NCBI GenBank assembly: GCA_014360015.1
Contig: JACIYJ010000006.1
Span: 60,447-124,446, forward strand
Source of the DNA: Candidatus Aminicenantes bacterium
GTDB taxonomy: Bacteria > Acidobacteriota > Aminicenantia > Aminicenantales > Saccharicenantaceae
Length of the DNA stretch: 64,000 nt
Direction of reading: 5' to 3'
Position numbers and translations under genes: made by a program. Positions 19,472-35,728 of the stretch are shown piece by piece (positions within the stretch are counted from its first letter, which is position 1; every line of letters starts with the position of its first letter). The notes under the pieces were generated by a model, which had not been told where the DNA came from, ran no database searches, and worked only from the letters and a program-made list of their open reading frames with translations.

Positions 19472-19744
19472 AGCAAACTCGCTCGGCTGAAATCTTGGTT
19501 CTTTTACCATGGACCCGGTAGGATTAAAATTCCGGGTCAAGTGGAAGAAGCTTGCTCTTTTGGAGCTTTTTATCTTCCAAAAAAATTTTGCTTTGAGTCA
19601 GGGTTTGATTTTAGCTTTTTTTGCGGGGGCTGGCAACATCTTTGCGAGCGTTGGTAACATCTCGAATTGCCTCTTTTAAATCATAGGTGAAAATGACTCG
19701 TTACCACACGTTGCAATTAGACTAAGTTTCGCTGCAATCCCTTC

Positions 19745-20140
19745 TTAATAAGAGGTCCTATTCCTACTCCTAACCATTCTTGAATATGCCTGATATCTTC
19801 TATGTCTACAAGCTGGATTTTTAACGTAAAGGCAATCTCGCATTTTTTTGATGATTGGTTCTTCAAATTTAACCAACTTAAGGAATTTGTGGTTTGTTCT
19901 ACTAAAAAGGTTAGTTGTTAATGGAAAAATTGGAATTAAATCTGATTCAATCGATTTTACATATGTTCAATATCCGTTAATTATTAGTTTATGGTACTTA
20001 TATTGATTCAAGACTGGTTGCAACCAGCCGTCGACTAATATTAAACGTGACCATCTTTTTTTGTTCCAAAAATAGTAATTTTCTTCTTGTTTTAAAAATG
20101 TTGCTCCGATGATAGTATAATTTTTTCCTTCGAAAAACAT
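19745..20140 (-). pseudogene. Second ORF of the array-1 cassette: 57 aa to TGA (19967-19969), frame stays open 73 more codons into the terminal repeat
   Basis: RBS AAGGAGGT, then MFFEGKNYTIIGATFLKQEENYYFWNKKRW...NGY*TYVKSIESDLIPIFP...; manual translation. Confidence 0.55.
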
Positions 20141-20152
20141 GTTTACCTCCTT

Positions 20153-20470
20153 TTAAGATTTTTTATCAGATTTATTATCCCGATTACCGTTATGATAATC
20201 GAGATTGCAAGGTTCAGACATTTTCCTAAAAAGCTCATTCCATGCACGTTTAAATTGTTCATTGTGATTAACTCCTTCCTTGATATGGGCAAGTTCGTGT
20301 GATACTATATGGGCAAATGTTTTGATTGAATTTATCTTATTCCAGTTAACAACGATAAGCCTTTCTTCAGGGAAGCAAATGCCTTTAATTTCATTCTTTA
20401 AAGGAGTTATCAATATACTCCTCGCCCCAATAGCTCTTGCAAGTTTTAAAATAGTTTTTAGTCTTATCAT
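20153..20470 (-). CDS. Small HExxH zinc-metalloprotease-like protein (SprT/WLM/YgjP-like) inside CRISPR array 1
   Basis: RBS GGAGGT; motif HELAHIKEGVNHNEQF; lies between two repeats. Confidence 0.75.
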   Translation of the reverse strand: MIRLKTILKLARAIGARSILITPLKNEIKGICFPEERLIVVNWNKINSIKTFAHIVSHELAHIKEGVNHNEQFKRAWNELFRKMSEPCNLDYHNGNRDNKSDKKS

Positions 20471-21346
20471 AGTTTGACCTCCATAAAAGATTTGAGAATC
20501 GGATCCCGTTGAGTCGCAACCCCTTCTTAATAAGAGGTCCTATTCCTACCGAAGAAACAGCAAAGTTCAGATTCGAGGATGAGGAGTCGCAATCCCTTCT
20601 TAATAAGAGGTCCTATTCCTACCTTGTAAGAAAGGCTGGATTTTTCGATATTTACTTCGAGTCGCAATCCCTTCTTAATAAGAGGTCCTATTCCTACAGG
20701 AGTTAAAAGAACAAATTGCCAGTTTAAAGGGTCGCAATCCCTTCTTAATAAGAGGTCCTATTCCTACAGGGAAGAGGAGCTGGATTTACAACTTGGATCT
20801 ATGTCGCAATCCCTTCTTAATAAGAGGTCCTATTCCTACCTTCAGCTTTAGGAAAGTCCGGTCCTCAGAAGGGTCATGTCGCAATCCCTTCTTAAAAAGA
20901 GGTCCTATTCCTACTCAGGATGCTGCTGTATAATTACGGCGGCTGGTTGACCTGTCGCAATCCCTTCTTAATAAGAGGTCCTATTCCTACAGGGAAGAGG
21001 AGCTGGATTTACAACTTGGATCTATGTCGCAATCCCTTCTTAATAAGAGGTCTTCTTCCTACGAAAAGAGATATTGGCTTATTTCCTCGTCCCCTGGCGT
21101 CGCAATCCCTTCTTAATAAGAGGTCTTATTCCTACTCGATGATGTTGAGGAAGAAGAGTGGAAGGAAATGTCGCAATCCCTTCTTAATAAGAGGTCCTAT
21201 TCCTACAAAAGGAGGTAGAAAAATGGAAAAAGTAAGGATGTCGCAATCCCTTCTTAATAAGAGGTCCTATTCCTACTTAAAGGCGCGTATTATAGAATTT
21301 TGTTTTTTAGTCGCAATCCCTTCTTAATAAGAGGTCCTATTCCTAC

Positions 21347-21456
21347 TGCGAGCCTTTATAACTTCTTTATTATCAGCGCAATACAAGCCCCCTTGTCCAA
21401 AATTTTTGTTCCTCACAATGTTAACAAAGAAACATTTCAGAAACGTTTCTTTTTTG
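21347..21456 (-). promoter_or_regulatory. Leader of array 1
   Basis: About 110 bp nearly identical to 25887-25995; contains the operator at 21426-21452. Confidence 0.85.
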
Positions 21457-21568
21457 CTATTCATCCCGATCCTCCAAAATTCGCCTCATAGGCTCCAATT
21501 AAAATAAAAATAACTAATCAATGCCTTCTCCCCATTCTATCACCACTTTTCCAATATTAATTTCATTC

Positions 21569-21853
21569 TTAATCATCGTCAAGGTAAATCCAAACTCCGG
21601 CTGGCACTTTTTCTCCCTGTCCCATGGCTATAGACTCAAAATCCGCCAGTAAAGGATAAATCCTGACGTCATCCTCTTTCTCTTCAATCATCTCACCTAA
21701 CTGCCTGTAGAGCCTTTTCAACTCTTCAGGTGAGAGTGCAAAATAAAACACTGACTTCTGAAGGTGTATCCCTTTGCCTTTTAAAAACCGGTGTACACGG
21801 TTTAGTCTTCGCTCATCCTTTATGTCATAAGATACTAAATATACGGATTTCAT
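21569..21853 (-). CDS. cas2: CRISPR-associated endoribonuclease Cas2
   Basis: YLVSYDI..RRL, LQKSVF, DDVRIY. Confidence 0.93.
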   Translation of the reverse strand: MKSVYLVSYDIKDERRLNRVHRFLKGKGIHLQKSVFYFALSPEELKRLYRQLGEMIEEKEDDVRIYPLLADFESIAMGQGEKVPAGVWIYLDDD

Positions 21854-22662
21854 ACCTTAAGCTCCTTGATGAGGTAAAAGAAATCATCTATTACTTTATT
21901 TATTTGATTATCGAGTTCAGACCTTTTATTTTCAAAGCGATGGATTATATTTCTATAGCCGTCACTGGTCAAATAGACTCTTTCCCCGCATTTTTGCACA
22001 AATCGGCTATAATTAGTTTGTTTAAAGAAAAGAATAACCTGCTCATCAATCTTCGCTTCAAGAAGATAAACCAGATCCAATACAAAACCAAAATTTACTC
22101 GCCTGAAATATGCTCCAGTATGAACATCAAGCCCGGCCTTAATCAGATTTATGGTTATTAGACCTTTCAATAGAAAGCTAACTACATCCTTTACTACCCG
22201 AGTTAAATATTTATCTCTGGGTATAAGTTTAGCCAGCAAAACTTCATAATCTCCCTCACCAAGCACATTGCTATTTCTCAAATAGGGAAAATATTTTTTA
22301 AGCAGCCGAAGCTGCAAACACATCCGATAGGCTTTTAGCCATTTTATGTATTTAAAGAGATTAATAGCATTTTCCAGAATAATTCGTTGTTCCTTGAAAT
22401 GATTTGCCAATTTGTGATTGAAAGGCAACAAAATGGCTATATCTTCTCCGGAATGACGGCTGACAATTAACGGAATATTCTGCTCAGCTAAAGCCAGCAT
22501 TGCCTCGCTTGAAATCTTTATGTTCCCTATCACATAAACTCTATTTATCAGCCGGAGCGGAACTCTTTGCCCAGCCTTCATCGGTTTCTGAATCCAGAGA
22601 GAAGGACCATCAGCGGTAACCTCAATATTTTCATTATCAACAAGATAAAGGCTCCTATCCAT
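21850..22662 (-). CDS. cas1: Divergent Cas1 paralog, probably catalytically inactive
   Basis: Cas1-like N-terminus (RVPLRLINRVYVIGN) and GLD.H.G region; lacks the GFxH His and the DLxE Glu. Confidence 0.7.
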   Translation of the reverse strand: MDRSLYLVDNENIEVTADGPSLWIQKPMKAGQRVPLRLINRVYVIGNIKISSEAMLALAEQNIPLIVSRHSGEDIAILLPFNHKLANHFKEQRIILENAINLFKYIKWLKAYRMCLQLRLLKKYFPYLRNSNVLGEGDYEVLLAKLIPRDKYLTRVVKDVVSFLLKGLITINLIKAGLDVHTGAYFRRVNFGFVLDLVYLLEAKIDEQVILFFKQTNYSRFVQKCGERVYLTSDGYRNIIHRFENKRSELDNQINKVIDDFFYLIKELKV

Positions 22663-23599
22663 TCAACAACCTCCTGGCTAAGTTTTGAACATATGACCTC
22701 CAGAGCGGTCTTTTTTCCCTGGCCCATTCTTCATAATGTCTAAAATATTTTTCACGACTCTTCTTTTTCAAAAAGCAACCATCCTGACCACCTGACTCTG
22801 AGCGAGTAAAATCATCCTCCTTAAACTCTCTTTCTCTAAATAAATTAAACACAAACCTGTCGGCATCTGCTCGAAAGGCCTCCACTAAGTCACACGCCAG
22901 TGATTCCCGTCCATATTCAAATGAATGGTAAAAGCCAATGACGGGATCGAGACCTATCAGTTCAATTTCTCTTACCAGCTCAAAATGAAGAAGGGTGTAA
23001 GTAAGGGACAAAAGAGCATTAACCGGATCAACCGGAGGTCTCCTTCTTCTGCCGGCGAAATTCAATGATGGCGGGAAAACAAGAGTCAGAGCCTTAAAAT
23101 AGCAGTTGGCAGCGCTTCCTTCCAACCCTCGAATAGAGTCAGGACTGTCTGCCTCTTTGAGTTGATTGCAAATAAATTCCATAGATTGAATGGAGCTGGA
23201 GATTTCAGATTTAAATTCTGGCCTCAAATCTTTCAGTTCAGCCAGAAACTCAATCTGTTTTTTCAGCTTTGCTTCCATTAGTTCTCTGGAAAAAATTAAG
23301 GTAAAAAAACTGAGGCTTTTCTCGTATTGTTTAACCCTAAGTAAACCATTATTATGAAGACGTCCATGGAGTATTCCTCTAAAAGCCAGTCGTCGACCGG
23401 ATAAAAATATTACCGCTATGTTGTTTAAAGCCAGTCTGTGCAGGACGAGAGTTTCAATCCTGACGTTTCCTATTATTACAACTCTTTCTAAAGGCTGGAG
23501 GGGTGCAGAGCCTTCACGATTGCCTTGGCAATAGAAAACCAATGAATTACCTTCTACTTTGATTTCTATATCCTTGCGGTCAATGTAAAGGCTTCCCAT
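22655..23599 (-). CDS. cas1: CRISPR-associated endonuclease Cas1
   Basis: RGLEGSAA, RRPPVDPVNALLSL, GFYH, LACDLVEAFR; start moved to ATG 23599. Confidence 0.95.
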   Translation of the reverse strand: MGSLYIDRKDIEIKVEGNSLVFYCQGNREGSAPLQPLERVVIIGNVRIETLVLHRLALNNIAVIFLSGRRLAFRGILHGRLHNNGLLRVKQYEKSLSFFTLIFSRELMEAKLKKQIEFLAELKDLRPEFKSEISSSIQSMEFICNQLKEADSPDSIRGLEGSAANCYFKALTLVFPPSLNFAGRRRRPPVDPVNALLSLTYTLLHFELVREIELIGLDPVIGFYHSFEYGRESLACDLVEAFRADADRFVFNLFREREFKEDDFTRSESGGQDGCFLKKKSREKYFRHYEEWAREKRPLWRSYVQNLARRLLNG

Positions 23600-23612
23600 T
23601 TTTATAAACTCC

Positions 23613-23897
23613 CTAACTGATATAAAAATAGGATGGGTCGCGAGGCAAAAGAGCGATCCCAAGGATCAAGGTCCTGGCTCGTCTATCAACTTGAAATATG
23701 TGCACCCTATCACTGTCCTCATCTATCATCTCCTTTAACTCCTCAATGACATGTGATAATTCAGCCTCAGTTAGAAAACATTCGTAAACTGATTTTTGCC
23801 CACCTGTGCTGTAGCCTTTTAAAAAATTCCGGACTTTGTTTAACCTTTTATCTTCGGTTATATCATAGGCAATCACATAAAAAAGCCGAGAACCCAT
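23613..23897 (-). CDS. cas2: CRISPR-associated endoribonuclease Cas2
   Basis: YVIAYDI, GGQKSVYEC, DRVHI. Confidence 0.93.
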   Translation of the reverse strand: MGSRLFYVIAYDITEDKRLNKVRNFLKGYSTGGQKSVYECFLTEAELSHVIEELKEMIDEDSDRVHIFQVDRRARTLILGIALLPRDPSYFYIS

Positions 23898-23969
23898 CTT
23901 TTCACTCCCGGCGTAGACTATTTACAATCTCCTGATTTAATAATCACACTGGCTGACTAAATAGGCAAC

Positions 23970-23998
23970 AAAAGAAACATTTCAGAAACGTTTCTTTT
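23970..23998. promoter_or_regulatory. Operator upstream of cas2-cas1-cas1'-cas2
   Basis: AAAAGAAACATTTCAGAAACGTTTCTTTT, just upstream of minus-strand TTGCCT-N17-GATTAT. Confidence 0.75.
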
Positions 23999-24137
23999 CG
24001 AAAAAGAGAGGACATTGGAATGATTAAAACAAAACTCGAGTGTAACTTATATTTTATTTTGTTTTTAAGTGGGTGAGCGCCTTGGTGCGGTCTTATGGGT
24101 GTGGCCGGAGATTAAATTTCCAATATTTTTAGCAGAT

Positions 24138-24170
24138 AAAAAGATAGAAGGCTTTTACCCGGTCTTCTAT
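24138..24170 (-). terminator. Putative terminator of the array-2 transcript
   Basis: ATAGAAG...CTTCTAT stem followed on the minus strand by CTTTTT, just past the terminal repeat. Confidence 0.55.
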
Positions 24171-24208
24171 TGTCATATTGCTTTCTTATTCTGAGGTCCT
24201 ATTCCTGC

Positions 24209-24416
24209 TCAATGGAGAGTTATCATGGGCAATCCGTCAACGTCTTTGTAATATGAGTAATTGCCTTTAGTGAAGACCAAGACCCTTCTGGGTGTTGGTC
24301 TTATAAATAATATTGTTCCTTTTTCTTCCACGTAAATAGAGCCTTGTATTGATCTAAATGGTCCACTAAAAAAATAAAAAGCCATAACACCAATCATTTA
24401 TGCTTAGGTATGCCAT
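24209..24416 (-). pseudogene. Small hypothetical gene in the array-2 cassette, either frameshifted or a 62-aa ORF from 24397
   Basis: RBS GAGGT plus ATG 24416 (MAYLSINDWCYGFLFF) joins the SGPFRSIQG...ITLH frame if one base of the A7 run (24368-24374) is removed; TGA abuts the repeat. Confidence 0.55.
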
Positions 24417-24419
24417 TTT

Positions 24420-24491
24420 TTACCTCTTTTTTCTAAGTTTTGCGATAAAACAAAGTAATAAAAAGATCCAAATTAAAATTTCAATCATCAT
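24420..24491 (-). CDS. 23-aa single-transmembrane peptide in the array-2 cassette
   Basis: RBS AAGGAG; MMIEILIWIFLLLCFIAKLRKKR*; manual translation. Confidence 0.6.
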   Translation of the reverse strand: MMIEILIWIFLLLCFIAKLRKKR

Positions 24492-25886
24492 ACATTCTCC
24501 TTTAAGGTTTTGAAGTCGCAATCCCTTCTTATTCTGAGGTCCTATTCCTACGAAGGCGCCCCAGGATTTGGGGTGCCATTTTTCAGTCGCAATCCCTTCT
24601 TATTCTGAGGTCCTATTCCTACCATTTTTCAGAGGGTCTTTTAGGTGTAGTAAGAATGATTTGTCGCAATCCCTTCTTATTCTGAGGTCCTATTCCTACT
24701 GAAAGGTTGGCAGGTTATTTTGTTGATTTGAGTCGCAATCCCTTCTTATTCTGAGGTCCTATTCCTACTGCGAACGGGGAAGAGAACCGGCACTTTGCCG
24801 GTTGCATGTCGCAATCCCTTCTTATTCTGAGGTCCTATTCCTACGAAATTTTCTTTTTGAAATAGCAAGTAGGGATAACAGTCGCAATCCCTTCTTATTC
24901 TGAGGTCCTATTCCTACTTTGGTTTAGGGTGGAAGGCGCTCCAGGATTTGGGGTCGCAATCCCTTCTTATTCTGAGGTCCTATTCCTACTAGGAAATTAG
25001 AAGATTATTTTTATTCCATGAAAAGTCGCAATCCCTTCTTATTCTGAGGTCCTATTCCTACTGGGGTGCCCTTTTTCCGTGGTAGTTTCAGGTGTACGAA
25101 GGTCGCAATCCCTTCTTATTCTGAGGTCCTATTCCTACTCATTTTCGTTGAAAAAAGGTGGGTGGGCCAAGGGAGTCGCAATCCCTTCTTATTCTGAGGT
25201 CCTATTCCTACTAAAAATGACAAAATAATTCGGGATTATTGTGATCGTGGTCGCAATCCCTTCTTATTCTGAGGTCCTATTCCTACGTAGAAGTTGTAGC
25301 TTCTGGATTTGCTATCTGGCACTTGAGGTCGCAATCCCTTCTTATTCTGAGGTCCTATTCCTACGGACCCTGTACTCGAGAAAATTGCTCGGGCTGCTGG
25401 GATTGTCGCAATCCCTTCTTATTCTGAGGTCCTATTCCTACAAATGGCAGCCACGGGAGATGCGACTCGTCTCAGAGTAGTCGCAATCCCTTCTTATTCT
25501 GAGGTCCTATTCCTACGAAAAAATGAAGGTTAAAGTGATAAGGATTGATGAAAGGTCGCAATCCCTTCTTATTCTGAGGTCCTATTCCTACAGGGAACCG
25601 TATCCTCATATTGCCGTCGGCGATGAGGGTCGCAATCCCTTCTTATTCTGAGGTCCTATTCCTACGAAGGTGAACTAATATAAGAAGGAAAAAGGCAGTG
25701 GAAGTCGCAATCCCTTCTTATTCTGAGGTCCTATTCCTACTCGCCCAAGATTGCGACAATAGTGCTAAAGCTGGTTAGTCGCAATCCCTTCTTATTCTGA
25801 GGTCCTATTCCTACTCGTTAAAACGTGGTGGGTGGTGTCGTGGATGCCTGTCGCAATCCCTTCTTATTCTGAGGTCCTATTCCTAC

Positions 25887-25995
25887 CGCGAGCCTTTATA
25901 ACTTCTTTATTATCAACGCAATACAAACCCCCTTGTCCAAAATTTCTGTTCCTGACAATGTTAACGAAGAAACATTTCAGAAACGTTTCTTTTTC
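25887..25995 (-). promoter_or_regulatory. Leader of array 2
   Basis: Homologous to leader 1; operator at 25967-25992. Confidence 0.85.
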
Positions 25996-26014
25996 AACCA
26001 TACTGATGTCTCTC

Positions 26015-27007
26015 TCATTCATTTTTTGAATCTACAATCTGATATTTACCCAGTCCAAAAGATGTTCCTTTACCTAAATGAAAAATCTCTCCCGCTTTCA
26101 ACATAGGCATAAAGCCAGAGATTTGTCCCCTGTAAACAACCCTGCCAACAAGCCCTCCGAGTTTCATCCTCACTTTTTGTCTGTGAGAATATCTCTCCCA
26201 ATCTGACCACTTAGCCTCATTCTTTTCGAGTCTCACCGTTCTGGCTCTTTCTATCAATTTTTTGTGATTCCATTCAGGTTCTTTATTTTCTCCGTGATAA
26301 AAATTAAGTAGAGCCAACCTTCTCATCAAATTAGTTATTAAAATATGAAACTCAAGCTTAGTAGCAAACTCTCTTTGGTACTTTATTCGGACAGGGGTTT
26401 TTAGTTCCAGCTGTAGCTCTTCTTCATCTCCACATCCACTCTCCTCTCCGCCCAGCTCATAGGGCTGATCTGAAAAATCTCTCTCTGGAACTTCAATCAT
26501 TCTATGAGCAGGTGGCTTTAATATTCGGGTTTTTCCATCATAGACAGGTTCCCCCGTAATTTCTACTTTTACTAATTCATACCTGCCACGTCCCTTTCCG
26601 ATACCTAACTCGCCAAGATATTCAAAGGCCATAATAAAATAAGGCAAATAATCTATTGCTTTCCCGATTAAAATCAGAACGAAAGAAATCTCAGATCCTG
26701 GTTCGTATAGCGGACGGGTTTCTTCTGGTGGCTCAATGACAAACGGATGCGGAATTGTTTCATACTTATCCATATTAAAAACTGCCGGGCCTTGAGGGGC
26801 CGGGGTTTCAAAAATATAAGCATAAGGACATTCCCGGACAATGGGACAATCCCGGCAATCTTTATTTCTAAAAACACAGATCACTTTTTTGAAGGCATTT
26901 CCAAAGCCGCCTCTGAAGGTAGATCCTTTGTACGGAGGAAGGTAGATAGGTTCCAGCGCCCGAAGGAAGAAGTCCAGTTTCTGATACTTAATAATCATTT
27001 GAAACAA
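26015..27007 (-). CDS. cas6: CRISPR precursor RNA endoribonuclease Cas6
   Basis: GSTFRGGFG, C-x-C cluster, C-terminal HLGKGTSFGLGKY glycine loop. Confidence 0.93.
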   Translation of the reverse strand: MFQMIIKYQKLDFFLRALEPIYLPPYKGSTFRGGFGNAFKKVICVFRNKDCRDCPIVRECPYAYIFETPAPQGPAVFNMDKYETIPHPFVIEPPEETRPLYEPGSEISFVLILIGKAIDYLPYFIMAFEYLGELGIGKGRGRYELVKVEITGEPVYDGKTRILKPPAHRMIEVPERDFSDQPYELGGEESGCGDEEELQLELKTPVRIKYQREFATKLEFHILITNLMRRLALLNFYHGENKEPEWNHKKLIERARTVRLEKNEAKWSDWERYSHRQKVRMKLGGLVGRVVYRGQISGFMPMLKAGEIFHLGKGTSFGLGKYQIVDSKNE

Positions 27008-27027
27008 ATCACCCTAAATAATAAAGC

Positions 27028-27270
27028 TCAAAACGGATTGTGGTCAAAGATAATGAGATCTCCGGTCACAGGTGAGCGATAGATAAGTTTGCAGGCTTTG
27101 CCATGAAGAAAATGGGCTATTTTTAAATAAAGCCAGATAGGTCCCGGCCCATGAAGGACCACTTCATTTCCTTCACCTGCCAGTTCATCTACCTTCCTTA
27201 GATAATTTCCAAGCTCTGTCAATTTAGCCTTCTCGTTATAAAGAGTAGAAACATCTATCTCCACAACCAT
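27028..27270 (-). CDS. csx3: Csx3 (Crn3) ring-nuclease-like protein
   Basis: 80 aa; VVLHGPGPIWLYLKIAHFLH motif; type III context. Confidence 0.75.
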   Translation of the reverse strand: MVVEIDVSTLYNEKAKLTELGNYLRKVDELAGEGNEVVLHGPGPIWLYLKIAHFLHGKACKLIYRSPVTGDLIIFDHNPF

Positions 27271-28421
27271 CAGTTCGCCTCCCTTTTAATTATTGAGCTT
27301 GCTTCTTCGAGTAAAGAGAATACTTTCTTTATTGCTCTGTTTGGATCAATATCCTCACGTTTTCTCATCAAAGCATGAGCCACTTTATTACGAGCCTGAC
27401 TGACTTGATTCCACAGAACACAAAGAGGTTCCTTAGATTTGTTTTTAACAGCCTGGCCAAGAACTTTTTCTGTAGTTTCTCTTTGCTTGGAGTCATACAG
27501 GTCTAAATTCATTTCCAAACATTTATAGCTTATTATAGCTTCCCGCAACACCAGCAAAGCCTGGGTCGGGTTTTTGTTCTCCAGGTACCAGCGAGCCACT
27601 TCCAGTTGCGCCTCCCACTCAGTTGGTTTTTTAAATCTCTGAATCATAGTTTTCAATTCTGACAACAATATTCCGAGTGGCTTTAGATAATTTTCGATCT
27701 CAGAACCTAAGGTTTCATCTTCCATTAACTGAGTTAAGGCTTCTGATATTTCCCCCAGTTGAGGGATATAGGTCATTTTGGTAACAGCCGTCAATTCCAT
27801 CAAATCTTTTTTCAGCAGGCGCAGCTTAGAATCTTTTTCCCCAGCTTGGCGGATTTCCCTCTCGGCCCGTTCTACCAGCCGACATAAATCATCAAGATCG
27901 CCATATTTTCGGAAAGAAGCCAGAGCTTCCATCCAGTCCAGAAGATCCATTAAAGGACGCAGATCAATGATATGGCTCTCGTTTGTTTTCTGATCCAGAA
28001 TCCCGTAAAAAATATGCCTGACTTCAGTCGATTTTTCTAAAAATTTTATAAACTGAATAAAGACGACCACAAAAAAAGGAATGGAACGGAAGCAATGGGT
28101 TATGTCAAAAGCAATTTCTGATTCTTTCACTGTTATATTTTTGGAAAGCAGATCAAACATCTGCCAGAATTCATCGGCTGACTTTCCTGCAGGTATCTCA
28201 ATGCGCTCATGTTTTAAGCTTTCAACCATCTCCCAGCGGGAGTCTTTTGTCCCTATTATGTAAATCTTATCTGGCTTAAAATAATTATTTATAGGAATTA
28301 TTGAAAGCTGGCTTTCATAACTCTGTCCGTTAAGCTGATACTGAACTTTCTGATAGTTTCCAGTGCCAAGAAAGCTGATCAGAACTCTGGTTTTTAAAGA
28401 TTTTGAGACTTCACTCATCAA
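27270..28421 (-). CDS. csx1: Csx1 (TM1812-type) CARF-HEPN effector RNase
   Basis: ISFLGTGNY, DITHCFRS (DxTHG-like), HEPN motif RNKVAH. Confidence 0.85.
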   Translation of the reverse strand: MMSEVSKSLKTRVLISFLGTGNYQKVQYQLNGQSYESQLSIIPINNYFKPDKIYIIGTKDSRWEMVESLKHERIEIPAGKSADEFWQMFDLLSKNITVKESEIAFDITHCFRSIPFFVVVFIQFIKFLEKSTEVRHIFYGILDQKTNESHIIDLRPLMDLLDWMEALASFRKYGDLDDLCRLVERAEREIRQAGEKDSKLRLLKKDLMELTAVTKMTYIPQLGEISEALTQLMEDETLGSEIENYLKPLGILLSELKTMIQRFKKPTEWEAQLEVARWYLENKNPTQALLVLREAIISYKCLEMNLDLYDSKQRETTEKVLGQAVKNKSKEPLCVLWNQVSQARNKVAHALMRKREDIDPNRAIKKVFSLLEEASSIIKREAN

Positions 28422-28476
28422 AACTCCTTTCAGATTGAATTAACTGAGCAAAAATTGACCTTCCTGAACGTGGCTT

Positions 28477-29484
28477 TCAACCCAGAGAAACTTCTACAAA
28501 ACCAAGCCCCTTTTTCAATTCTCCATCAATCAGCCTCTTTCTGGTGCGTGGCCGTTTTACCTTATAGCTTTTAATTCCAACCTCATCAGCCAGTATCAAC
28601 ATTGAAGTGCTAAAAGCAGTTGCTCCCTGACCGACTCTTAGAAGGTAATAGCCAGGCTTTTCAGGCAAGTTCAGATTCAGACCATCATTTTTTATGACTT
28701 TTCGATAAAAATTATCACAGATTTTTAAGATCTGCCCTTCTTCCAGCTGACATTTTTTCTTTTTGATCTCAAATTCGGCTTCAACGTTTTCTTTTATCGT
28801 CTCATAAAGAACAGGGATATTCCCGCCGCGCCTTGCTCCTTGAACAAGGCATTTTTCAACCCTGAGCGTCTCCCGAGGCGAAAGATAAGTGCTATCGCTC
28901 ACATCCAGCAAATTTAAAAACTTATCCTCAAACTTTTCTTTTGATTTATCAGATTCCTGATCGCTAAAATGTTCAAATTTTTTCAAAACATTTTTTCCAG
29001 AAAGATATCCATAAGCCAGATCTAAAAGTCTGTCGTTGGCCTTTCTATCATTAATATTTGCCATCAATGCCTCGATTTCCTTTTTCTTCCCCTTGGTGGC
29101 CAATTCCTTAAGGGCAAAATAGATGAGTGCAGTAATTACAGATCCTTTTATAGAACTCCCAGGGAAATAGGGACGACCTGCACTTTTTACAAACGCCTTT
29201 ACTTCAATTTTATGTCCTCGTGCCTCGGTGGTAATATCTGTAGAATAAAGAACGTGTCTTTTAAGCAAATTATGGTCCTGTATTATATCTCCAATGTATC
29301 GAGAACTTGCAGCCTGTTTTATGAAGTCATCACGATATTTAGCAAAATCTTTATCCCTGAACAGGCTATCCATATTAAGAACATTAAATTTTCCCCTCTC
29401 CTTATCTATAAAATAGCCTGAGGGAGAAATAACCTGGCCAGATCCTATATGCACTGGAGTAAGCACTTTTATTCTGGCTTTCAT
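28477..29484 (-). CDS. csm5: Type III-A RAMP Csm5
   Basis: LTPVHIGSG, PYFPGSSIKG, LRVGQG; gene position. Confidence 0.9.
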   Translation of the reverse strand: MKARIKVLTPVHIGSGQVISPSGYFIDKERGKFNVLNMDSLFRDKDFAKYRDDFIKQAASSRYIGDIIQDHNLLKRHVLYSTDITTEARGHKIEVKAFVKSAGRPYFPGSSIKGSVITALIYFALKELATKGKKKEIEALMANINDRKANDRLLDLAYGYLSGKNVLKKFEHFSDQESDKSKEKFEDKFLNLLDVSDSTYLSPRETLRVEKCLVQGARRGGNIPVLYETIKENVEAEFEIKKKKCQLEEGQILKICDNFYRKVIKNDGLNLNLPEKPGYYLLRVGQGATAFSTSMLILADEVGIKSYKVKRPRTRKRLIDGELKKGLGFVEVSLG

Positions 29485-30479
29485 TGTTCCTCCATCTTAC
29501 AAGGAAATGAAAACAAAAATCCATACCGATAAACACGGTGGGCAGTAAAGACTTCTGGCGTAATGTCCACAAGGGCACCTTTTCTGTTTGCCGCGGGAAA
29601 GATAGAACCTTCAGAAAAAAGGCGAAGAGAGCGCCGGCGGTAGGATCGGTTGTGGAGAGAAAAGATATAGCCCTTTCTCACTTCCAGCTCATAAAACCCT
29701 TTCTCCAGCCCGACTAGTTCCTCATCTCGAGGAAAATAAGTGGAGACCGCATAAGAGGCATTTGCTTCAGAAACTTCAGGGATGAAAAGACGGTCAAATT
29801 CAGGTGGATAAAACAGGCCTTTTCCGGCAGTTCGGTCGCCACCAATTCCTTCGTCAGCCAGAAGGTTAAACAGTGCCCTGACCTTATTCTCCCAGCTCTC
29901 ATCCTTTAAATTCACCAGGATAAATAAACCAGAGTTCTCGGCGAAATGAACCTGTCCGAAATGAAAAAAGTTTTCTCCAGGGTGATTATTAAACCGGCTC
30001 AAAGCAATGCGGGGCACATCTTCCACTTCCCAGGGAACCAGCTTTTTCCCAGCTCTTTCTTTTTTATCAATTCTTGGTAGACAATCAAGCTCCTGACTCT
30101 TATCAATTTCATCCTCCAGGTCTTCAAGGTGTTCATTGTTAAGAAGTCTAAGCAATAACTTCAGGTTGACAAATTTAACTTTTTTTAGTTCTTTTCCATT
30201 CTCCGAGCTTTTTACGTTTCCGAACATCTGATTTTTGGGCAGGGGAAAATATAATTCATCCTCCCAATAGGGAAAGGCTGAGCTCAAAAGAAAAGGTGGC
30301 TCTTCTTTGAAGGCCTGAATAAATGAATCTACTTCACCATAGAGAAGAAGATGACAGTGGCAGAGGGCAGAAAAGATAGTATCAGAAGGTATGTGTATCT
30401 TACTGCCCTCCAGCCAGCCTTCCCTTTCACCCAAATGAAGGAAACTTTTTGGCTTTAGTTTTATTCTTAAGTATTCCAT
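29481..30479 (-). CDS. csm4: Type III-A RAMP Csm4
   Basis: SDTIFSAL, SSAFP, GIGGDRTAGKG, HRVYRYG. Confidence 0.92.
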   Translation of the reverse strand: MEYLRIKLKPKSFLHLGEREGWLEGSKIHIPSDTIFSALCHCHLLLYGEVDSFIQAFKEEPPFLLSSAFPYWEDELYFPLPKNQMFGNVKSSENGKELKKVKFVNLKLLLRLLNNEHLEDLEDEIDKSQELDCLPRIDKKERAGKKLVPWEVEDVPRIALSRFNNHPGENFFHFGQVHFAENSGLFILVNLKDESWENKVRALFNLLADEGIGGDRTAGKGLFYPPEFDRLFIPEVSEANASYAVSTYFPRDEELVGLEKGFYELEVRKGYIFSLHNRSYRRRSLRLFSEGSIFPAANRKGALVDITPEVFTAHRVYRYGFLFSFPCKMEEQ

Positions 30480-30481
30480 GG

Positions 30482-31309
30482 TTAATCAGCAAGCTTGTTT
30501 TTGATGAGATCAAATTTTTGAACAATTTCAGCCGGAGTGGTTCCGACATCTTTATTAATGGCTCTTTCAGAGGTAAGAGCTATCTGACCTGTTTCGTAAT
30601 TTTCTCGTTTGTTCCAGAAAATTTCAATATTGTTAAAAGCTACCCGGCCATATCCACGCGATCCCATCCCACCAAGGTAATCGTGCTCTAAAAGTTCAAG
30701 AGCCACAAAAATATGCTTGAGAAATTCTTTGTCCTTTTCGTCAAAGACATTGTAGATTAACTCTGCATCCTTAAAACGAGCACCAGCTGGAACTCGCTCG
30801 ATTTGCCTCAGGCTTCCATGTAAGGCGGTTCCAGTAAGGCGGTTTATGGCCGTCTCAAATTTTACTTCCGTGTATTCTAATTCTAAATTGTCTTTCATTT
30901 CCTGGGTAATGCTGTTTTCATCAAGATAAGTATCTCTTACCAGCAGCCTGGTAGGAGTCGGAGATTTAATCTCAACATCTTTATCTGATACTGCTATTCC
31001 CCATATTCTGCACACAGGACAGTTCAGATATTCCTGATCGGTTCGGCATTTGTGACCTGAAATTTGATCTTTGTTGTCCTTTACATTCCAGAAATCTGGC
31101 TTCTTTGCGGCTTCTTTTTTCTCAATTAGAGACCGAAGCTTTCCTTTCAAGGAAGAACCAGGAATGTAGGGCTTGCCCTCTGGATCAGTAATGACATTTA
31201 GATCGAGTCCACCAATTTTCAGCCCAGTGGTTGCTCCTCCAATTCTCATTCCTGTCTTTACTTCAATCTGACCCCTGATGATTACTTTTCCTATAAGATA
31301 ATGATTCAT
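30482..31309 (-). CDS. csm3: Type III-A RAMP Csm3
   Basis: TGMRIGG, IGGLD (catalytic Asp), PYIPGSSLKGKLRS, LGGMGSRGYG. Confidence 0.95.
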   Translation of the reverse strand: MNHYLIGKVIIRGQIEVKTGMRIGGATTGLKIGGLDLNVITDPEGKPYIPGSSLKGKLRSLIEKKEAAKKPDFWNVKDNKDQISGHKCRTDQEYLNCPVCRIWGIAVSDKDVEIKSPTPTRLLVRDTYLDENSITQEMKDNLELEYTEVKFETAINRLTGTALHGSLRQIERVPAGARFKDAELIYNVFDEKDKEFLKHIFVALELLEHDYLGGMGSRGYGRVAFNNIEIFWNKRENYETGQIALTSERAINKDVGTTPAEIVQKFDLIKNKLAD

Positions 31310-31340
31310 TTTATCCTCCTTTTTCCTTTACTTAGGTGAA

Positions 31341-31748
31341 TTATTTGCCACCATGAAATTTATGGTAAGCAACAATGGCTTCGATGAAATTTTTAAAGTA
31401 TTGAAAGTTCTGTTTATTAGTATTTTGTATCAATTTTTCCATTAACTCGCGAAAATCTTTTATTCGTCCTTTATGTCTGCCGGCAGCATAAGCCAATTTA
31501 GGCCTTAACATCTGAATCCGGTATTCATCATATTCTTTCATCCTCTGAATCTCGTCGAGCACATTGCGAATCTGAGAAGTGGTTAATTTTTCTGTCTCCT
31601 TGGCATCAAGAAACCATTTGGCTAAATCATCCGCATACATATTCAGTTCCTTAGCATCGCCTTTCAATATCTTTTCGATCTTGTTTAGATCGATTTTTGA
31701 CCCCTGATTGTTGGGATTAGAATTTTTTGGATTTCCCTGATAACTCAT
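31341..31748 (-). CDS. csm2: Type III-A small subunit Csm2
   Basis: TTSQIRN, LRPKLAYAAGR, EAIVAYHKF. Confidence 0.95.
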   Translation of the reverse strand: MSYQGNPKNSNPNNQGSKIDLNKIEKILKGDAKELNMYADDLAKWFLDAKETEKLTTSQIRNVLDEIQRMKEYDEYRIQMLRPKLAYAAGRHKGRIKDFRELMEKLIQNTNKQNFQYFKNFIEAIVAYHKFHGGK

Positions 31749-31757
31749 AATCTCCTC

Positions 31758-34286
31758 CTATTCTTTTCTTGTTAAATAATCGGCCACTCTCGTGGCGATA
31801 TTTAAATATGGATAAATCTCATAATTAATGACAATCAAGTTAATTAATTGCTCCAGGTCTTTTTTTTGCTGGTCATCAAGCTTTCTCACAAGCTTTTTTA
31901 GGGCATAATGTAAGCGCCATACCCTTTCCATATAAATCTCGCCTTTCCTCTTCTTCTCTTTCTTGTTTTCCTTTTCCAGATAGATGTTATAAAGAACGCT
32001 GAGCAGAGAACGGGGCACTTCCCGACCGTTTTTCCCCTTAAGAAGACTTAGAATCAAGTCAATTATCCTGTTTATTTTCTCCAGACAATTCCACTCTAAA
32101 GCTTCTCCAAAAAGGCTAAGCCGGTTTTTTCCATTATTTTTAGCGATTTCTTCAGCTTCTCCGGCTTTCTTAGCTGCCTGGTATATGGGGAACTTATCTC
32201 GCGGAGCATAGAATATCCCGGCAGATAGAGTCAGTCTGTAGCAGGAAAACCGGCGAAAATCGTCATAGATTACTTCAGCAATTTTATGAAGGTCAGACCA
32301 CGGCCCGATCAGAAACAGGTCATCCCCACCAGAATAAGCCACATAAACATCATCAGCCAGCCCGTGGCCATTGTTCTTAGGCATCCAGTTATCAAGCTGA
32401 GCAATTCGGGCATTGAAATAAAGCGAGAGCATCGAGCTCAGCATACTGACCCTGGAAATTGTTTTATTCTTTTCGAGTCCTTCACGGAAAAGAAAACCCA
32501 GGTTATCAACATCGGCTCTCAGCACTCCCCATTTTTCTATGCCTGAAGCTCGCCTGGCCATATTCTCCAGAGTCAAAACATTACGATCAGCTCCACGAAC
32601 CTTTCTGGCAATAAAAGTAAAGCCCTGAAACTTGCCTGCAAAATCTGTGGAATTTATAACCAGAGAGTTGCGATAAATTTTAGCATCCTCGTCAGCAGAT
32701 AAAAATTGGTAGCGAAAACCAAGAGCCTGAGGCACATGGTACCAGCGAATATCTTTTTGAGGAAGTGGCTTCTTGTCTTCTGATTTTATTAAAATAGCCA
32801 CAGCCTTAACCAGGTCGTTAGAAAAAGAAATCAAGCTATCACAAAAGCTACAGGTTTCCTGCGCTGGCTCAATCTCTTCGCCACAGATAGAACAGCCTTT
32901 CCTTTCTCCCCCCTGGTCAAAAGGTCCCAGAACAAATTCTCTGAACTGCTCTGGATTTTCAGAAGCAAGAAGAGAAGCAAATTTGCGGCGTTTGCTCAGG
33001 GATAAGCTGCAGCCGAGATCCTGCCAGAGAGAGGCAAAATCCAGGAAAAAGTTCTCGTAGCTAACCGGAATCCAGCTCAAGATAGCAGCTACCTTTCCTT
33101 TATGGGCTCTTAATAAAATTTGATCCATTTCCATCTGAACTCGGCTTAATCTGTCTTCACTGTCCCTGAGCTTTGGAACTAACAGGTAAAAATTTCCTCC
33201 TCCGCAGTAGATCAGGTTAGCTTCCGGAAGGTCAAATTCAAGGAGAATTTTTCTGGCTAAAATCTCAGAAATCATCTGGAGGTAAGCTGACCTCCCACGC
33301 AATCCCTTGAGGGCATTTTCTGAGGTAATCTGATAGATAAAATCTTGAATCCCGGATATATCCCCACCTACCAGGAGGAAATCTTTGTCCGCAAGGTGAG
33401 AAGACTTCTTTAATGCCTGGGAAACTTCATCTGTTTTTAAATTGTTAATGTCTCGAAGGATATTGTCTATCTTGCTCTCAAACTCTCTCAGCCCTCGTTC
33501 TTCGCTTAACAAGTAAAGGCAAGCGGCAATAGCTGCTGTACTTTTTAAATGATGAAAAAGAGAAATATCAGGTTTTTCTCTGTAGACAGCTGAAGGAATA
33601 GCCAGGGTGTACTTCAGTAAAAGATAATAGATGGATGAAAGTATTTCATCTTTATTTAGTAAGTTCAGTTCTTTGATAAATTCATTCCATAACTTCTTAT
33701 AAGCTTCCTGGCCAGAGAGGTTATGAAAAGCTTCTTTCCGACTGTCTACAGGAAAAAACCCGTTAAGAGTCCTGTCAAGCGGAGATAATCGAGTGTAAAA
33801 TTCCTTGATCTCGCTGGCTCTGTTTTCTTTGAAATCTTTTTTGCCTTTACCTTCTTTACCTTCAAGTTTTATCTGAGAAAATATCGAGGTCAAAGGCTCT
33901 TCAGCTGGTTTTCCTGACTCTTCATCCTCTTCACGCTCCACTCGTTCACCTGAAGACATTCTGTCGGCCAATGTCAGCAGTTTAGCCAGGAATTTCTGTC
34001 TCTCATTTATGGCATTTTCCGGAACATGATGGCAAGCTGCTATTACACCAGCTTCATCATATTGACTGAGATATTCCCGAAAGAACTTAGCAGTATAAGC
34101 CCCATGCACGTGGCTGTACTTGGTGGACTGTCCGTCTCTGATTTTTCTGGTGAAATTTTCGTAATCGTAATTGTCACCTTCTTTTCTCCAATCAAACTTA
34201 GCACCTGTCCTTTGATAAAATTTTCCGATATCGTGGAGAAGACTGGCCAGAATTAATAGCTGGTAATCAGAAAGTTTTTTCTTCAT
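31758..34286 (-). CDS. cas10: Cas10/Csm1 with HD nuclease and cyclase palm domains
   Basis: LLHDIGKF, GGDISGIQDFIY, LRGRS, DVDNLG, YSGGDDLF. Confidence 0.96.
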   Translation of the reverse strand: MKKKLSDYQLLILASLLHDIGKFYQRTGAKFDWRKEGDNYDYENFTRKIRDGQSTKYSHVHGAYTAKFFREYLSQYDEAGVIAACHHVPENAINERQKFLAKLLTLADRMSSGERVEREEDEESGKPAEEPLTSIFSQIKLEGKEGKGKKDFKENRASEIKEFYTRLSPLDRTLNGFFPVDSRKEAFHNLSGQEAYKKLWNEFIKELNLLNKDEILSSIYYLLLKYTLAIPSAVYREKPDISLFHHLKSTAAIAACLYLLSEERGLREFESKIDNILRDINNLKTDEVSQALKKSSHLADKDFLLVGGDISGIQDFIYQITSENALKGLRGRSAYLQMISEILARKILLEFDLPEANLIYCGGGNFYLLVPKLRDSEDRLSRVQMEMDQILLRAHKGKVAAILSWIPVSYENFFLDFASLWQDLGCSLSLSKRRKFASLLASENPEQFREFVLGPFDQGGERKGCSICGEEIEPAQETCSFCDSLISFSNDLVKAVAILIKSEDKKPLPQKDIRWYHVPQALGFRYQFLSADEDAKIYRNSLVINSTDFAGKFQGFTFIARKVRGADRNVLTLENMARRASGIEKWGVLRADVDNLGFLFREGLEKNKTISRVSMLSSMLSLYFNARIAQLDNWMPKNNGHGLADDVYVAYSGGDDLFLIGPWSDLHKIAEVIYDDFRRFSCYRLTLSAGIFYAPRDKFPIYQAAKKAGEAEEIAKNNGKNRLSLFGEALEWNCLEKINRIIDLILSLLKGKNGREVPRSLLSVLYNIYLEKENKKEKKRKGEIYMERVWRLHYALKKLVRKLDDQQKKDLEQLINLIVINYEIYPYLNIATRVADYLTRKE

Positions 34287-34337
34287 TTTTTGTTACCTCT
34301 AATTTTATTTTTATCTTGTCTTAATCCCATTTCAACA

Positions 34338-34361
34338 AAAGAAACGTTTCAGAAACGTTTC
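34338..34361. promoter_or_regulatory. Operator upstream of the cas10-csm operon
   Basis: AAAGAAACGTTTCAGAAACGTTTC, overlapping the stop codon of the CARF gene. Confidence 0.7.
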
Positions 34362-35511
34362 AATTTATGGCGATTTTGCTTTTTTCCAATCGTACACCAT
34401 AGCGACTGCTGGCATAAATCTTGATACAGCTAATTGCTGCCAGTGAAAACAATGTTTTCTCCTGCAGCTCTTCCCTGAGGATTTTATTAATTTTACTTAT
34501 ATACTGCCTGCAGACCTCAACGGGGATTCCGTTTTTCCATTTCTTCAAGAGAGCTTCCTGTTTCCAGCTTTTCTGACCAGATATCTTAGAATAATCGTCA
34601 GCGTATTTTTTTAGATCTTCTGCGCGGAAAAGCTCTCCTAATTCTCTGAAACAGTCCTGACAGTCAAGACAATTAGCTCTTTCGGGATGAGGGCAGTATT
34701 CAGTTTTTTGCTTCAAAAATATCACATAAATGAATAATAACATCGGTGAAAAATTGATTGCTCGGCCATTGATCTCAACTTTTCTATCAATGAGACTTAC
34801 TGAAATTTCGGGATGAAGTGTTGACAGGTCAATTTCCCTCTGACCTTCCTCAACCAGTTCCCGGAAACTTTTACCTTTCAGGTTTATTTTTCGCCCCAGT
34901 CTGATAAACGGCAAATCAGCCAGAATAATCTTTGCCTGGCTTGTATTAAGAATCATTTGCTTTCCTTCTCTGGTTTTAATCAAAATATCTCTATCCTGTC
35001 TGGGTTTATAAAAAAAATCTGGATTGCTCTCAAATTCAGGGGTAACTATGACATGATAAAGTTTATCCCAGGGACGACCGAATAATTGCAGAGCCGACCC
35101 TAAATAAAAGCTCATAGTCTTTCGTCCACCAGCAATGGAGCAATGAAGACGCGTGTTTTCATCTCGCGTTTTCTCTCTAACTAAGGAAGTTATCAAATCG
35201 CCCAGAGCTTCATTATCCTCGTAGGAACATATGTCTTCTATCAGGCTGCCGTCTTTGTTTCTGGGAATAAATATCTTATCTTCTTCCAACTTAAGAGAAG
35301 GTATGTTGAATTCATTTATAAGGTTATCGAGGATGCTCCTTTTTACCAAATTTTCTATAATCGATTGTTTACCCAAAGCAGTTGTAACAATATAAATTTC
35401 ATCAGGATAAATAGGAGGTTTAGCTGTAGCTAAGGAATAAATAGTTTCTGTTATAACCTGAGGCGATGTCCCCACCACAAATATGAAAATTTCCTTAAAT
35501 TTGCCCATCAA
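34360..35511 (-). CDS. CARF (NE0113-type) protein with C-terminal winged-HTH-like domain
   Basis: GTSPQVITET, HCSIAGGRKTMS, LYHV; C-terminus with Cys cluster and RQYISKINKILRE...SRYGVRL. Confidence 0.8.
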   Translation of the reverse strand: MMGKFKEIFIFVVGTSPQVITETIYSLATAKPPIYPDEIYIVTTALGKQSIIENLVKRSILDNLINEFNIPSLKLEEDKIFIPRNKDGSLIEDICSYEDNEALGDLITSLVREKTRDENTRLHCSIAGGRKTMSFYLGSALQLFGRPWDKLYHVIVTPEFESNPDFFYKPRQDRDILIKTREGKQMILNTSQAKIILADLPFIRLGRKINLKGKSFRELVEEGQREIDLSTLHPEISVSLIDRKVEINGRAINFSPMLLFIYVIFLKQKTEYCPHPERANCLDCQDCFRELGELFRAEDLKKYADDYSKISGQKSWKQEALLKKWKNGIPVEVCRQYISKINKILREELQEKTLFSLAAISCIKIYASSRYGVRLEKSKIAIN

Positions 35512-35728
35512 TCCGCCGATTTTTTATTAGGAAATCTATTAGAAATCAAAATAAATTTAAAAGTCAAGCAAATTTTGGCTTTAGAATAACATCTTCTGTC
35601 AACATAAAATTTTTCTTTCAGAAAAAATTTCTAATTAATCACTAAGTCGATTATCTAATTCCAAACCTAACCTGAATAGCATAACTAAGCCACTAATATC
35701 TGCAATTTTACGCTTTTATATAATTTTT

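Follow-up and report, generated by a model that had tools for sequence, protein, structure and literature searches.

A 21-bp element of a type III-A CRISPR locus as the likely operator of a CARF–winged-helix protein

We analysed a 64,000-nucleotide stretch of DNA from Candidatus Aminicenantes bacterium (contig JACIYJ010000006.1, positions 60,447 to 124,446; hereafter the window), in which a 21-bp element occurs four times within one CRISPR locus, next to the gene of a 382-aa CARF protein of the NE0113/Csx14 family. We consider it likely that the element is the operator of this protein, and that the protein is a bacterial type III-A analogue of Csa3, a CARF-gated transcription factor acting on the units for interference, adaptation and CRISPR RNA (crRNA) production. 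The site is very probably a real, specific and conserved operator, and its regulator is very probably the adjacent protein, which joins a CARF domain to a predicted winged helix. Most likely the site would let the CRISPR system adjust its own expression through a protein that is usually annotated as a signal-degrading enzyme. An initial annotation of this DNA had proposed the same regulon. Its interpretation was borne out overall, and it was overturned by none of three observations that could have spoken against it: a motif common across the genome, a motif in loci that lack the gene, or a C-terminus of another fold.

The 21-bp element in the window and in other genomes

Across all carriers the consensus of the element is GAAAyrTTTC-N-GAAAyrTTTC, and the four sites of the window conform to GAAACrTTTC-N-GAAACGTTTC. 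All genes of the locus lie on the minus strand and the sites are read on that strand, where they take the form GAAACGTTTC-T-GAAAyGTTTC. The palindromic 10-mer GAAACGTTTC, with at most one mismatch, gave nine matches in the window against 2.68 expected, a number that none of 100 shuffles reached. Eight of these matches form four pairs at 11-bp spacing (21429-21449, 23974-23994, 25969-25989 and 34341-34361), while the ninth, at 59244, is a lone 10-mer. When the whole assembly (2,722,800 bases in 30 contigs, 94.44% complete) was scanned for the 21-mer GAAAYRTTTCNGAAAYRTTTC with at most two mismatches, exactly these four places were found, all of them inside the CRISPR locus, and a backwards-read control gave none. 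With a weight matrix made from orthologous sites the four scored 32-33 bits and the next best position in the window 12 bits. Thus the four occurrences seen by eye in the initial annotation are real, as is its description of the site as a dyad that is at the same time a tandem of palindromic 10-mers, and the motif is not common in the genome. One part of that count needs correction. The leaders that hold O1 and O3 are paralogous, with five differences in the 80 nt between site and repeat, so the window offers three independent occurrences rather than four.

The sites were numbered O1 to O4, and in the direction of transcription the locus runs from the CARF gene through O4, the cas10-cas6 operon, O3, the leader and array 2, O2, the adaptation genes and O1 to the leader and array 1. 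O4 (GAAACGTTTCTGAAACGTTTC, 34341..34361, minus strand) overlaps the last base of the TGA stop of the regulator gene (34362-34360). O3 (25969..25989, minus strand) lies 25 nt past the cas6 stop and about 80 nt ahead of the first repeat of array 2. O2 (23974..23994, minus strand) is found 177 nt past the last repeat of array 2 and 5 nt ahead of the -35 hexamer of the adaptation operon. O1 (21429..21449, minus strand) follows the stop of the second cas2 by 119 nt and precedes the first repeat of array 1 by about 80 nt. A candidate decayed site upstream of the regulator gene (GAAATTTTTTCTGAAAG, near 35600) was rejected, since the matrix scan gave at most 12 bits elsewhere in the window.

The protein is conserved over its full length: each of the 120 best matches, among them records of Dissulfurispira thermophila and Syntrophorhabdus aromaticivorans, aligns to 96-100% of the query, with lengths of 372-390 aa in most cases. 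Using the protein as query, we retrieved 15 loci from genome records assigned to Aminicenantes, Thermodesulfovibrionales/Nitrospirota, Deltaproteobacteria and Deferribacteres. In 14 of the 15 we found the site, with at most two mismatches and in the same geometry. The exception (L018) encodes a homologue that matches residues 5-227 only, and its genome is without a site. At one mismatch or fewer, scans of the 15 carrier genomes gave 27 further sites, 31 with the four of the window, and the backwards control was empty in 15 of the 16 genomes scanned.

These 31 sites occur in a limited set of contexts. Eight are in the regulator's own promoter (two of them through a TraT-regulator operon), seven lie directly past the regulator stop and face cas10, DUF2130 or an unnamed open reading frame (ORF), six are ahead of cas2-cas1, and four are in leaders or a putative leader. 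Two precede LemA genes, and one each is upstream of a 110-aa ORF followed by TraT, ahead of a RAMP gene, between a methyltransferase and a Card1-type CARF gene and, unexplained, between a helicase and a ParB-like gene. A TraT-like lipoprotein gene follows the operator in three genomes, two of which are closely related (L176/L177 in G007 and G006; L171 in G002), and a LemA-family gene does so in two (L168 in G002; L182 in G014, where a DUF3137 gene is next). TraT-like and LemA genes are therefore possible members of the regulon outside the cas genes, which would be unexpected ones. On the Nitrospirota side we also observed long stretches of short-unit repeats of the TTGAAT/ATTCAA type (L008 at about 11200-11400, L015 at about 11190-11330, L193 and L195), which lie downstream of the operator-promoter, ahead of the following gene, or surround the gene of the regulator.

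Genomes outside the fetched loci gave a similar association. Within the own phylum (301 genomes), two genomes gave a match to the C-terminal domain (that of the window, G000, and, weakly, G306), and the motif, at one mismatch or fewer, was found in G000 only and in none of the 300 others. Among 121 genomes in the class of G012, on the Nitrospirota side, the domain was found in 29 and the motif in 17: 16 genomes have both, 13 the gene only, one the motif only and 91 neither. The motif is thus present in 16 of 29 gene-positive and 1 of 92 gene-negative genomes, an association (Fisher p = 2.8e-11) that is overstated because related genomes were counted as independent. Of the 13 genomes with the gene alone we fetched ten. 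Each of these has a diverged copy of the site, two to five mismatches away (of the GAAATATTGC and GCAATATTGT types), located about 60 nt ahead of the start codon or directly past the stop.

The form of the site varies with the form of the protein. All five proteins with R-H-G in the wing have a promoter-proximal 10-mer ending in TTGT, and all five with R-S/T at the start of the conserved helix have TTGC/GCAA...TTGT sites, whereas for R-Q and R-Y-G proteins TTGT was seen in 1 of 13 loci only. Site variants thus appear to track protein lineages, a correspondence that is confounded by phylogeny. These natural variants of operator and domain (GAAA/TTTC versus GCAA/TTGT) suit a specificity-swap test.

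The same data bear on whether the element could be the operator of another protein, either a regulator of the host or a small protein of the locus that escaped recognition, with the CARF protein being merely a ring nuclease whose C-terminal domain is structural. The family is indeed annotated as a ring nuclease in excerpts of PMC8284326 and PMC12409355, and a host OmpR-type factor, RpaB, can control a type III system in Synechocystis according to a partial text of bioRxiv 10.1101/2023.12.07.570523. However, in at least four phylum-level groups the site accompanies the gene, and any host factor would therefore need to be common to all of them, and the 300 phylum relatives hold no site. Other ORF families recur in at most 9 of the 16 loci, and a DNA-binding domain was found in none of those that recur. 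The site also abuts the start or stop of the regulator gene at 15 of the 31 genome-wide sites, and operator variants follow variants in the helix and wing of the protein. We regard an unrelated binding protein as improbable.

The second genome of the phylum with a match to the domain, G306, has a divergent 467-aa NE0113 protein (L191, contig C111, 2413-3816) with the same C-terminal domain (E 2.3e-18), which adjoins cas1 and a second NE0113 gene. No GAAAyrTTTC site was found in L191. A 67-bp element repeated three times and CACGRA-type repeats of 14-bp period flank cas1 there (3990-4650 and 5830-5947).

The CARF protein and the predicted fold of its C-terminal domain

The regulator gene (34360..35508, minus strand) encodes 382 aa from an ATG at 35508, with a TTG at 35511 also open. 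The CARF domain comprises approximately residues 1-207, and Pfam and NCBIfam matches span residues 8-225: 224.2 bits for TIGR02584 (cutoff 80.65), a family that NCBIfam labels 'ring nuclease Csm6', and 152.9 bits for PF09623 (cutoff 23, E 1.3e-44). The model of the whole protein has a predicted local distance difference test (pLDDT) score of 86. Foldseek returned 25 matches to it at E <= 0.001, and nearly all listed were CARF proteins, with the cyclic oligoadenylate (cOA)-binding Cad1, Can2, Cam1, Sis0455 and Sso2081 as structural neighbours. A sequence search of solved structures with the single protein gave no match at E <= 1, and with the family profile at E <= 10 it gave CARF domains of Cad1 only (best E 0.005) and no Csa3 chain.

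Residues expected of a ring nuclease are present. G13 is invariant, position 15 is serine or threonine in 34 of 36 family sequences, and G127-G128-R129-K130 are invariant, so that the protein has the conserved GxS/T motif I and the basic motif II residue of Crn1-like ring nucleases. The assignment of positions 13/15 and 127-130 to catalysis follows excerpts of PMC8844856 and not a structural superposition.

In the whole-protein fold search only CARF matches were returned, and the C-terminal domain (residues 208-382, 175 aa; DNA 34363-34887, minus strand) was therefore modelled alone, from 14 sequences (pLDDT 86, predicted template-modelling score 0.83). In an exhaustive structure search with this model the first 18 rows were all DNA-binding domains of the OmpR/PhoB type (Z 9.5-7.0, root-mean-square deviation (rmsd) 2.4-3.1, 82-100 residues aligned), although models that lack true matches often have a best Z of 7-8. 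BaeR led with Z 9.5 (100 residues aligned, rmsd 3.0), followed by VanR (8.7), AdeR (8.5), GlnR (8.5) and CadC (8.4, with 99 residues aligned to a chain of 107). The matches cover 90-100 of the about 95-107 residues of these OmpR/PhoB domains, and it is the uniformity of the match list together with this coverage on which we base the assignment. Foldseek also ranked the OmpR/PhoB family first, with a weak best E of 0.049, and the protein has no match to Pfam PF00486 (Trans_reg_C), PF09623 being the sole match at E <= 0.01. We consider the fold evidence for the winged helix to be moderate.

The predicted fold consists of an N-terminal beta-sheet, three helices and a C-terminal beta-hairpin wing. 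Between the first helix and the later ones is an insertion of about 50 residues with four invariant cysteines (C272, C280, C283 and C286), a cluster that probably binds zinc. Further invariant residues (R334, Q335, K339, Y365, G371 and K378) and near-invariant ones (N341, R369 and Y370) fall in the last long helix and the beta-hairpin. The expectation in the initial annotation of a winged helix at the C-terminus therefore agrees with the model, which adds the four-cysteine insertion to an OmpR/PhoB-type domain. In the ESM Atlas, structures similar to residues 208-382 are predicted in stand-alone proteins of 175-215 aa and in a 308-aa RtcR-type CARF family, all feature scores being below 0.9. 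This hints that the C-terminal domain may be a mobile DNA-binding module.

Three known groups of proteins resemble the regulator in part. Csa3 (Csa3a/Csa3b) of Sulfolobales type I-A systems likewise joins a CARF sensor at the N-terminus to a winged-helix DNA-binding domain at the C-terminus. Excerpts of PMC8699464 and PMC8844856 describe its recognition of cyclic tetra-adenylate (cA4), and excerpts of PMC8284326 its regulation of adaptation genes, cas genes and CRISPR loci; the regulon predicted here extends to units of these three kinds. The two differ in that the CARF clade here is TIGR02584/PF09623 (Pfam and NCBIfam matches were to NE0113/Csx14 only, which places the protein outside the Csa3 sequence family), that the second domain is a winged helix of the OmpR/PhoB type, with its N-terminal beta-sheet and the four-cysteine insertion, and that the system is bacterial and lies within a type III-A locus, directly ahead of cas10. 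In addition, the GxS/T motif is kept in the NE0113/Csx14 members, whereas Csa3 of S. solfataricus is described in excerpts of PMC8844856 as lacking ring-nuclease activity.

Stand-alone ring nucleases of the Crn1/Csx14 group belong to the same CARF family by profile, and the CARF half resembles Sso2081 and Sis0455 in structure. According to excerpts of PMC8284326 and PMC12409355, Csx14 was predicted to be a ring nuclease from a conserved Ser/Thr and Lys and was later merged with Crn1. The protein studied here differs by its extra 175-aa DNA-binding domain, conserved at full length in the 120 best relatives. Part of PMC12409355 describes a survey of ring nucleases with a length limit of 250 aa for stand-alone members, which would leave out the 382-aa form.

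The third group, the OmpR/PhoB response regulators (BaeR, VanR, AdeR, GlnR, CadC and PhoB), shares the fold of the DNA-binding domain. Here, in contrast, the sensor is a CARF domain and not a phosphorylated receiver, the winged helix carries the insertion of about 50 residues with its four invariant cysteines and lacks a Trans_reg_C match by sequence, and each repeat of the site is a palindrome in its own right, as would suit a two-fold symmetric CARF dimer.

A regulatory role for such proteins has been considered before. Excerpts of PMC4012209 show that direct regulation of transcription was predicted for NE0113 and Csa3 in 2014, those of a 2024 clustering study (PMC11754643) that most CARF proteins with hard-to-annotate effector domains are likely transcriptional regulators, and those of PMC7465815 that MM_0565 affects cas1-solo transcription in Methanosarcina mazei. 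In a literature search by family names, CARF with OmpR, the motif, and CARF regulators of cas10 promoters, the partial texts seen held no description of an operator, a regulon or an OmpR/PhoB fold for this family; an earlier account of the architecture may exist.

Promoter geometry, leaders and the sense of regulation

Two of the four sites stand directly ahead of predicted promoters. A sigma-70-type promoter of cas10 is predicted at 34307..34335 on the minus strand (TTGAAA, 17 nt, AAAAAT) from its match to the consensus, and the cas10 ATG is 54 nt beyond the end of O4. For cas2-cas1, the predicted promoter at 23940..23968 on the minus strand (TTGCCT, 17 nt, GATTAT) was read from the sequence and is absent from the output of a promoter scan with a stricter rule; the cas2 ATG (23897) is 76 nt beyond the end of O2. 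In both cases a gap of 5 nt (TTTTG) separates the site from the -35 hexamer on the minus strand (TTGAAA at 34335-34330 and TTGCCT at 23968-23963). These are the TTG-starting hexamers noticed in the initial annotation, and the activator position that it assigned to the site is supported, since the site covers about -60 to -40.

This geometry recurs in the other loci. At the fixed 5-nt offset, 17 of the 31 sites have at least 8 of 12 matches to the -35/-10 consensus, compared with 121 of 5000 random positions in the same loci. In Nitrospirota-side loci the start codon of cas2 is exactly 40 nt past the site (four loci), and the start codon of the regulator is 40-41 nt past it in five loci. Such a spacing implies leaderless transcripts, again with the site at about -60 to -40.

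The element could also be read as a weak, partly bidirectional intrinsic terminator or insulator that ends the upstream unit or, in a softer version, as terminator and operator in one. Of the explanations that compete with a regulator's operator this is the main one, and we judge it very improbable. As RNA, the dyad would form a 9-bp hairpin followed by a U-run, and O4 was terminator-like in a simple scan (nine pairs, a 3-nt loop, then TTTTGTTG). Every site of the window lies past the 3' end of a unit, at the regulator stop for O4 and at the distances given above from cas6, array 2 and the second cas2, and a T-run follows most promoter-type sites. Mismatches at the central pairs number 4 where 8.9 are expected under independence (62 cells), but pairing covariation does not discriminate here, because symmetric changes are expected of a dyad operator and of a hairpin alike.

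The hairpins themselves are weak, however, with a median minimum free energy of -3.6 kcal/mol for the 21-mer RNA, a best value of -6.9 kcal/mol and 0.0 for 3 of the 31 sites. In the common Nitrospirota form of the site only one pair is G-C, some changes in the diverged copies are not compensated (for example GAAATATTGC-A-GAAATATTGT), and what is conserved across phyla is the sequence, beyond its pairing. Four sites (L168, L176, L182 and L190) lie between divergent genes with nothing upstream to terminate, and at the leaders of L164, L025 and L044 no T-run accompanies the site in the sense direction. A terminator would also leave unexplained the 5-nt offset to the -35, the 40-nt offset to the start codon and the restriction to genomes with one DNA-binding domain.

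The leader sites differ from the others. At the 5-nt offset the four leader-type sites have 3-7 of 12 promoter consensus matches, and since there is no adjacent promoter the mode of action there may differ. O3 has no sigma-70 match at this offset. An extended -10-like block, TGaTAATAA, lies between site and first repeat in the window (25915-25889) and in L164. In six distinct leaders, including those of L025 and L044, which are of unrelated sequence, 79-81 nt separate the site from the first repeat.

In type I systems IHF positions Cas1-Cas2 at the leader-repeat junction. The element might similarly have a mainly architectural role, as a bending or anchoring site for Cas1-Cas2 at that junction or as a recombination site at module borders. 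The constant distance to the first repeat even where the leader sequence is unrelated, the weak promoter matches at leader sites and the presence of a site at every module border in the window all accord with this. On the other hand, 27 of the 31 sites are not at leaders and show promoter geometry instead, no recombinase is conserved in the loci, and sites also precede unlinked LemA and TraT genes. As the main function of the element this is the least probable explanation of those considered here, although an architectural role at leaders could exist alongside transcriptional control.

For the element as operator of the CARF protein, a mechanism can be outlined. Domains of the OmpR/PhoB type bind two repeats of 10-11 bp one helical turn apart, beside or overlapping the -35, and mostly activate. 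The sites described here have this form, with 10-mers 11 bp apart and 5 nt to the -35. CARF domains dimerise, and a CARF-mediated dimer would place one winged helix on each 10-mer, the two being one helical turn apart; because each 10-mer is palindromic, a two-fold symmetric CARF dimer could use the tandem site. At the cas10-cas6 and cas2-cas1 promoters the bound protein would cover a site that extends from about -60 to -40 and ends 5 nt before the -35, where domains of this type usually activate. In the leaders, about 80 nt from the first repeat, it might act architecturally or on an extended -10 promoter farther away. A site also lies ahead of the regulator's own gene in most orthologous loci, and the protein would there control itself.

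The signal would be a cyclic oligoadenylate from the GGDD-intact Cas10, which would bind the CARF domain and switch the regulator. We infer this ligand control from the family of the CARF domain, the intact cyclase of Cas10, the accessory genes and the conservation of the GxS/T motif. Of the possible ligands cA4 is the likelier, given neighbours of the Csx1-like and Csx3-like kinds. Given the same GxS/T motif, the regulator may cleave its own ligand and so reset itself.

The form and position of the site fit the OmpR/PhoB mode, and we lean towards activation as the sign of regulation, while giving repression a substantial chance. Taken furthest, the protein would be a self-resetting, cOA-gated activator of the OmpR type: cOA made on infection would raise crRNA production, acquisition and interference (and, in other genomes, the regulator itself and envelope genes, namely LemA and that of the TraT-like surface-exclusion lipoprotein), the regulator's own ring-nuclease activity would end the response, and the whole would form a mobile positive-feedback regulon that reaches from RNA sensing to exclusion at the cell surface and whose leader site also fixes the integration complex about 80 nt from the repeat. 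We find this full scenario rather unlikely.

If the operator reading is correct, a widespread accessory protein of bacterial type III-A systems would be a signal-responsive transcription factor with a defined 21-bp operator. Its regulon would span interference, adaptation and crRNA production, as has so far been shown only for archaeal Csa3. It would also make testable the question of whether expression of a bacterial type III system is fed back from its own second messenger.

Several points weigh against this reading or parts of it, in addition to the moderate fold evidence and the terminator-like character of O4. Because the regulator gene served to find the loci, it is present in all of them by design, and co-occurrence cannot strictly tell a regulator apart from whatever else is carried along with the locus. 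The bare 21-mer was found in at least 122 metagenome loci and 22 viral loci; among the metagenome loci listed (122, of which 42 with 300-nt flanks only), 13 had Cas or CARF matches and 109 had none, and none of the 22 viral loci had any. Most of these are tandem arrays with an 11-nt unit, (GAAATATTTCW)n or (GAAACGTTTCW)n. Since the bare 21-mer also occurs outside cas loci, the motif alone is not diagnostic, and it is the motif together with promoter geometry that is. The motif does then occur in loci without the gene in the trivial sense of these arrays, but not in promoter geometry, and at the level of whole genomes the two rarely part (none of 300 genomes of the own phylum, 1 of 92 in the second class).

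Other points concern the proposed control. In the window the matrix scan found no site in the regulator's own upstream region, so autoregulation does not apply in this genome. Promoters, transcription start sites and binding are predictions throughout. Several target -35 hexamers are near the consensus (TTGAAA and TTGCCT), which is commoner for repressed than for activator-dependent promoters and keeps repression open, as does the precedent of the repressor Csa3b in excerpts of PMC8844856. The same excerpts report that Csa3 of S. solfataricus bound its promoter independently of cA4 in vitro, so ligand control is not a given for CARF regulators.

The tandem arrays are of some interest in themselves. 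Those of (GAAACGTTTCW)n are in phage contigs of 56-60% G+C (L142-L163), and the satellite-like (GAAATATTTCW)n repeats (many of L020-L141) are concentrated in a few metagenome samples; the fetched flanks of both held no cas genes. Both are candidates for iterons or for sites of another regulator.

Genes and arrays of the locus

The locus is a type III-A (Csm) system with an active-looking cyclase and accessories likely of the cA4 type. All features given here are on the minus strand. The interference operon, cas10 to cas6, occupies 26015..34286. It comprises cas10 (31758-34286), in which HD and GGDD motifs are present, csm2 (31341-31748), csm3 (30482-31309), csm4 (29481-30479), csm5 (28477-29484), the gene of a CARF-HEPN Csx1-like protein (27270-28421) with R-x4-H at residue 344, a csx3-like gene of 80 aa (27028-27270) and cas6 (26015-27007). 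The csx3-like ORF passes the Pfam cutoff (28.1 against 21 bits) and is far under that of NCBIfam for Crn3/Csx3 (24.3 against 55.4 bits), the latter match covering the C-terminal half of the profile only.

The adaptation genes occupy 21569..23897, with cas2 at 23613-23897 and cas1 at 22655-23662. Downstream of these is a second adaptation pair (21569-22662), made up of a partial Cas1-like protein of 270 aa (21850-22662) that matches the N-terminal 94 positions of the Cas1 profile only, and a second cas2 (21569-21853).

Array 2 (24172..25886) has 19 identical 37-nt repeats (25886-24515) and a degenerate terminal repeat (24208-24172), and array 1 (19731..21346) has 12 repeats (21346-20513) and a degenerate terminal repeat (19767-19731). 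In both arrays a long non-repeat insert separates the last regular repeat from the degenerate one, of 306 bp in array 2 (24209-24514) and 745 bp in array 1 (19768-20512). These inserts may be the embedded cassettes to which the initial annotation referred. The 745-bp insert holds an ORF of 105 aa (20153-20470) with weak, sub-threshold metallopeptidase-like matches (YgjP-like and WLM).

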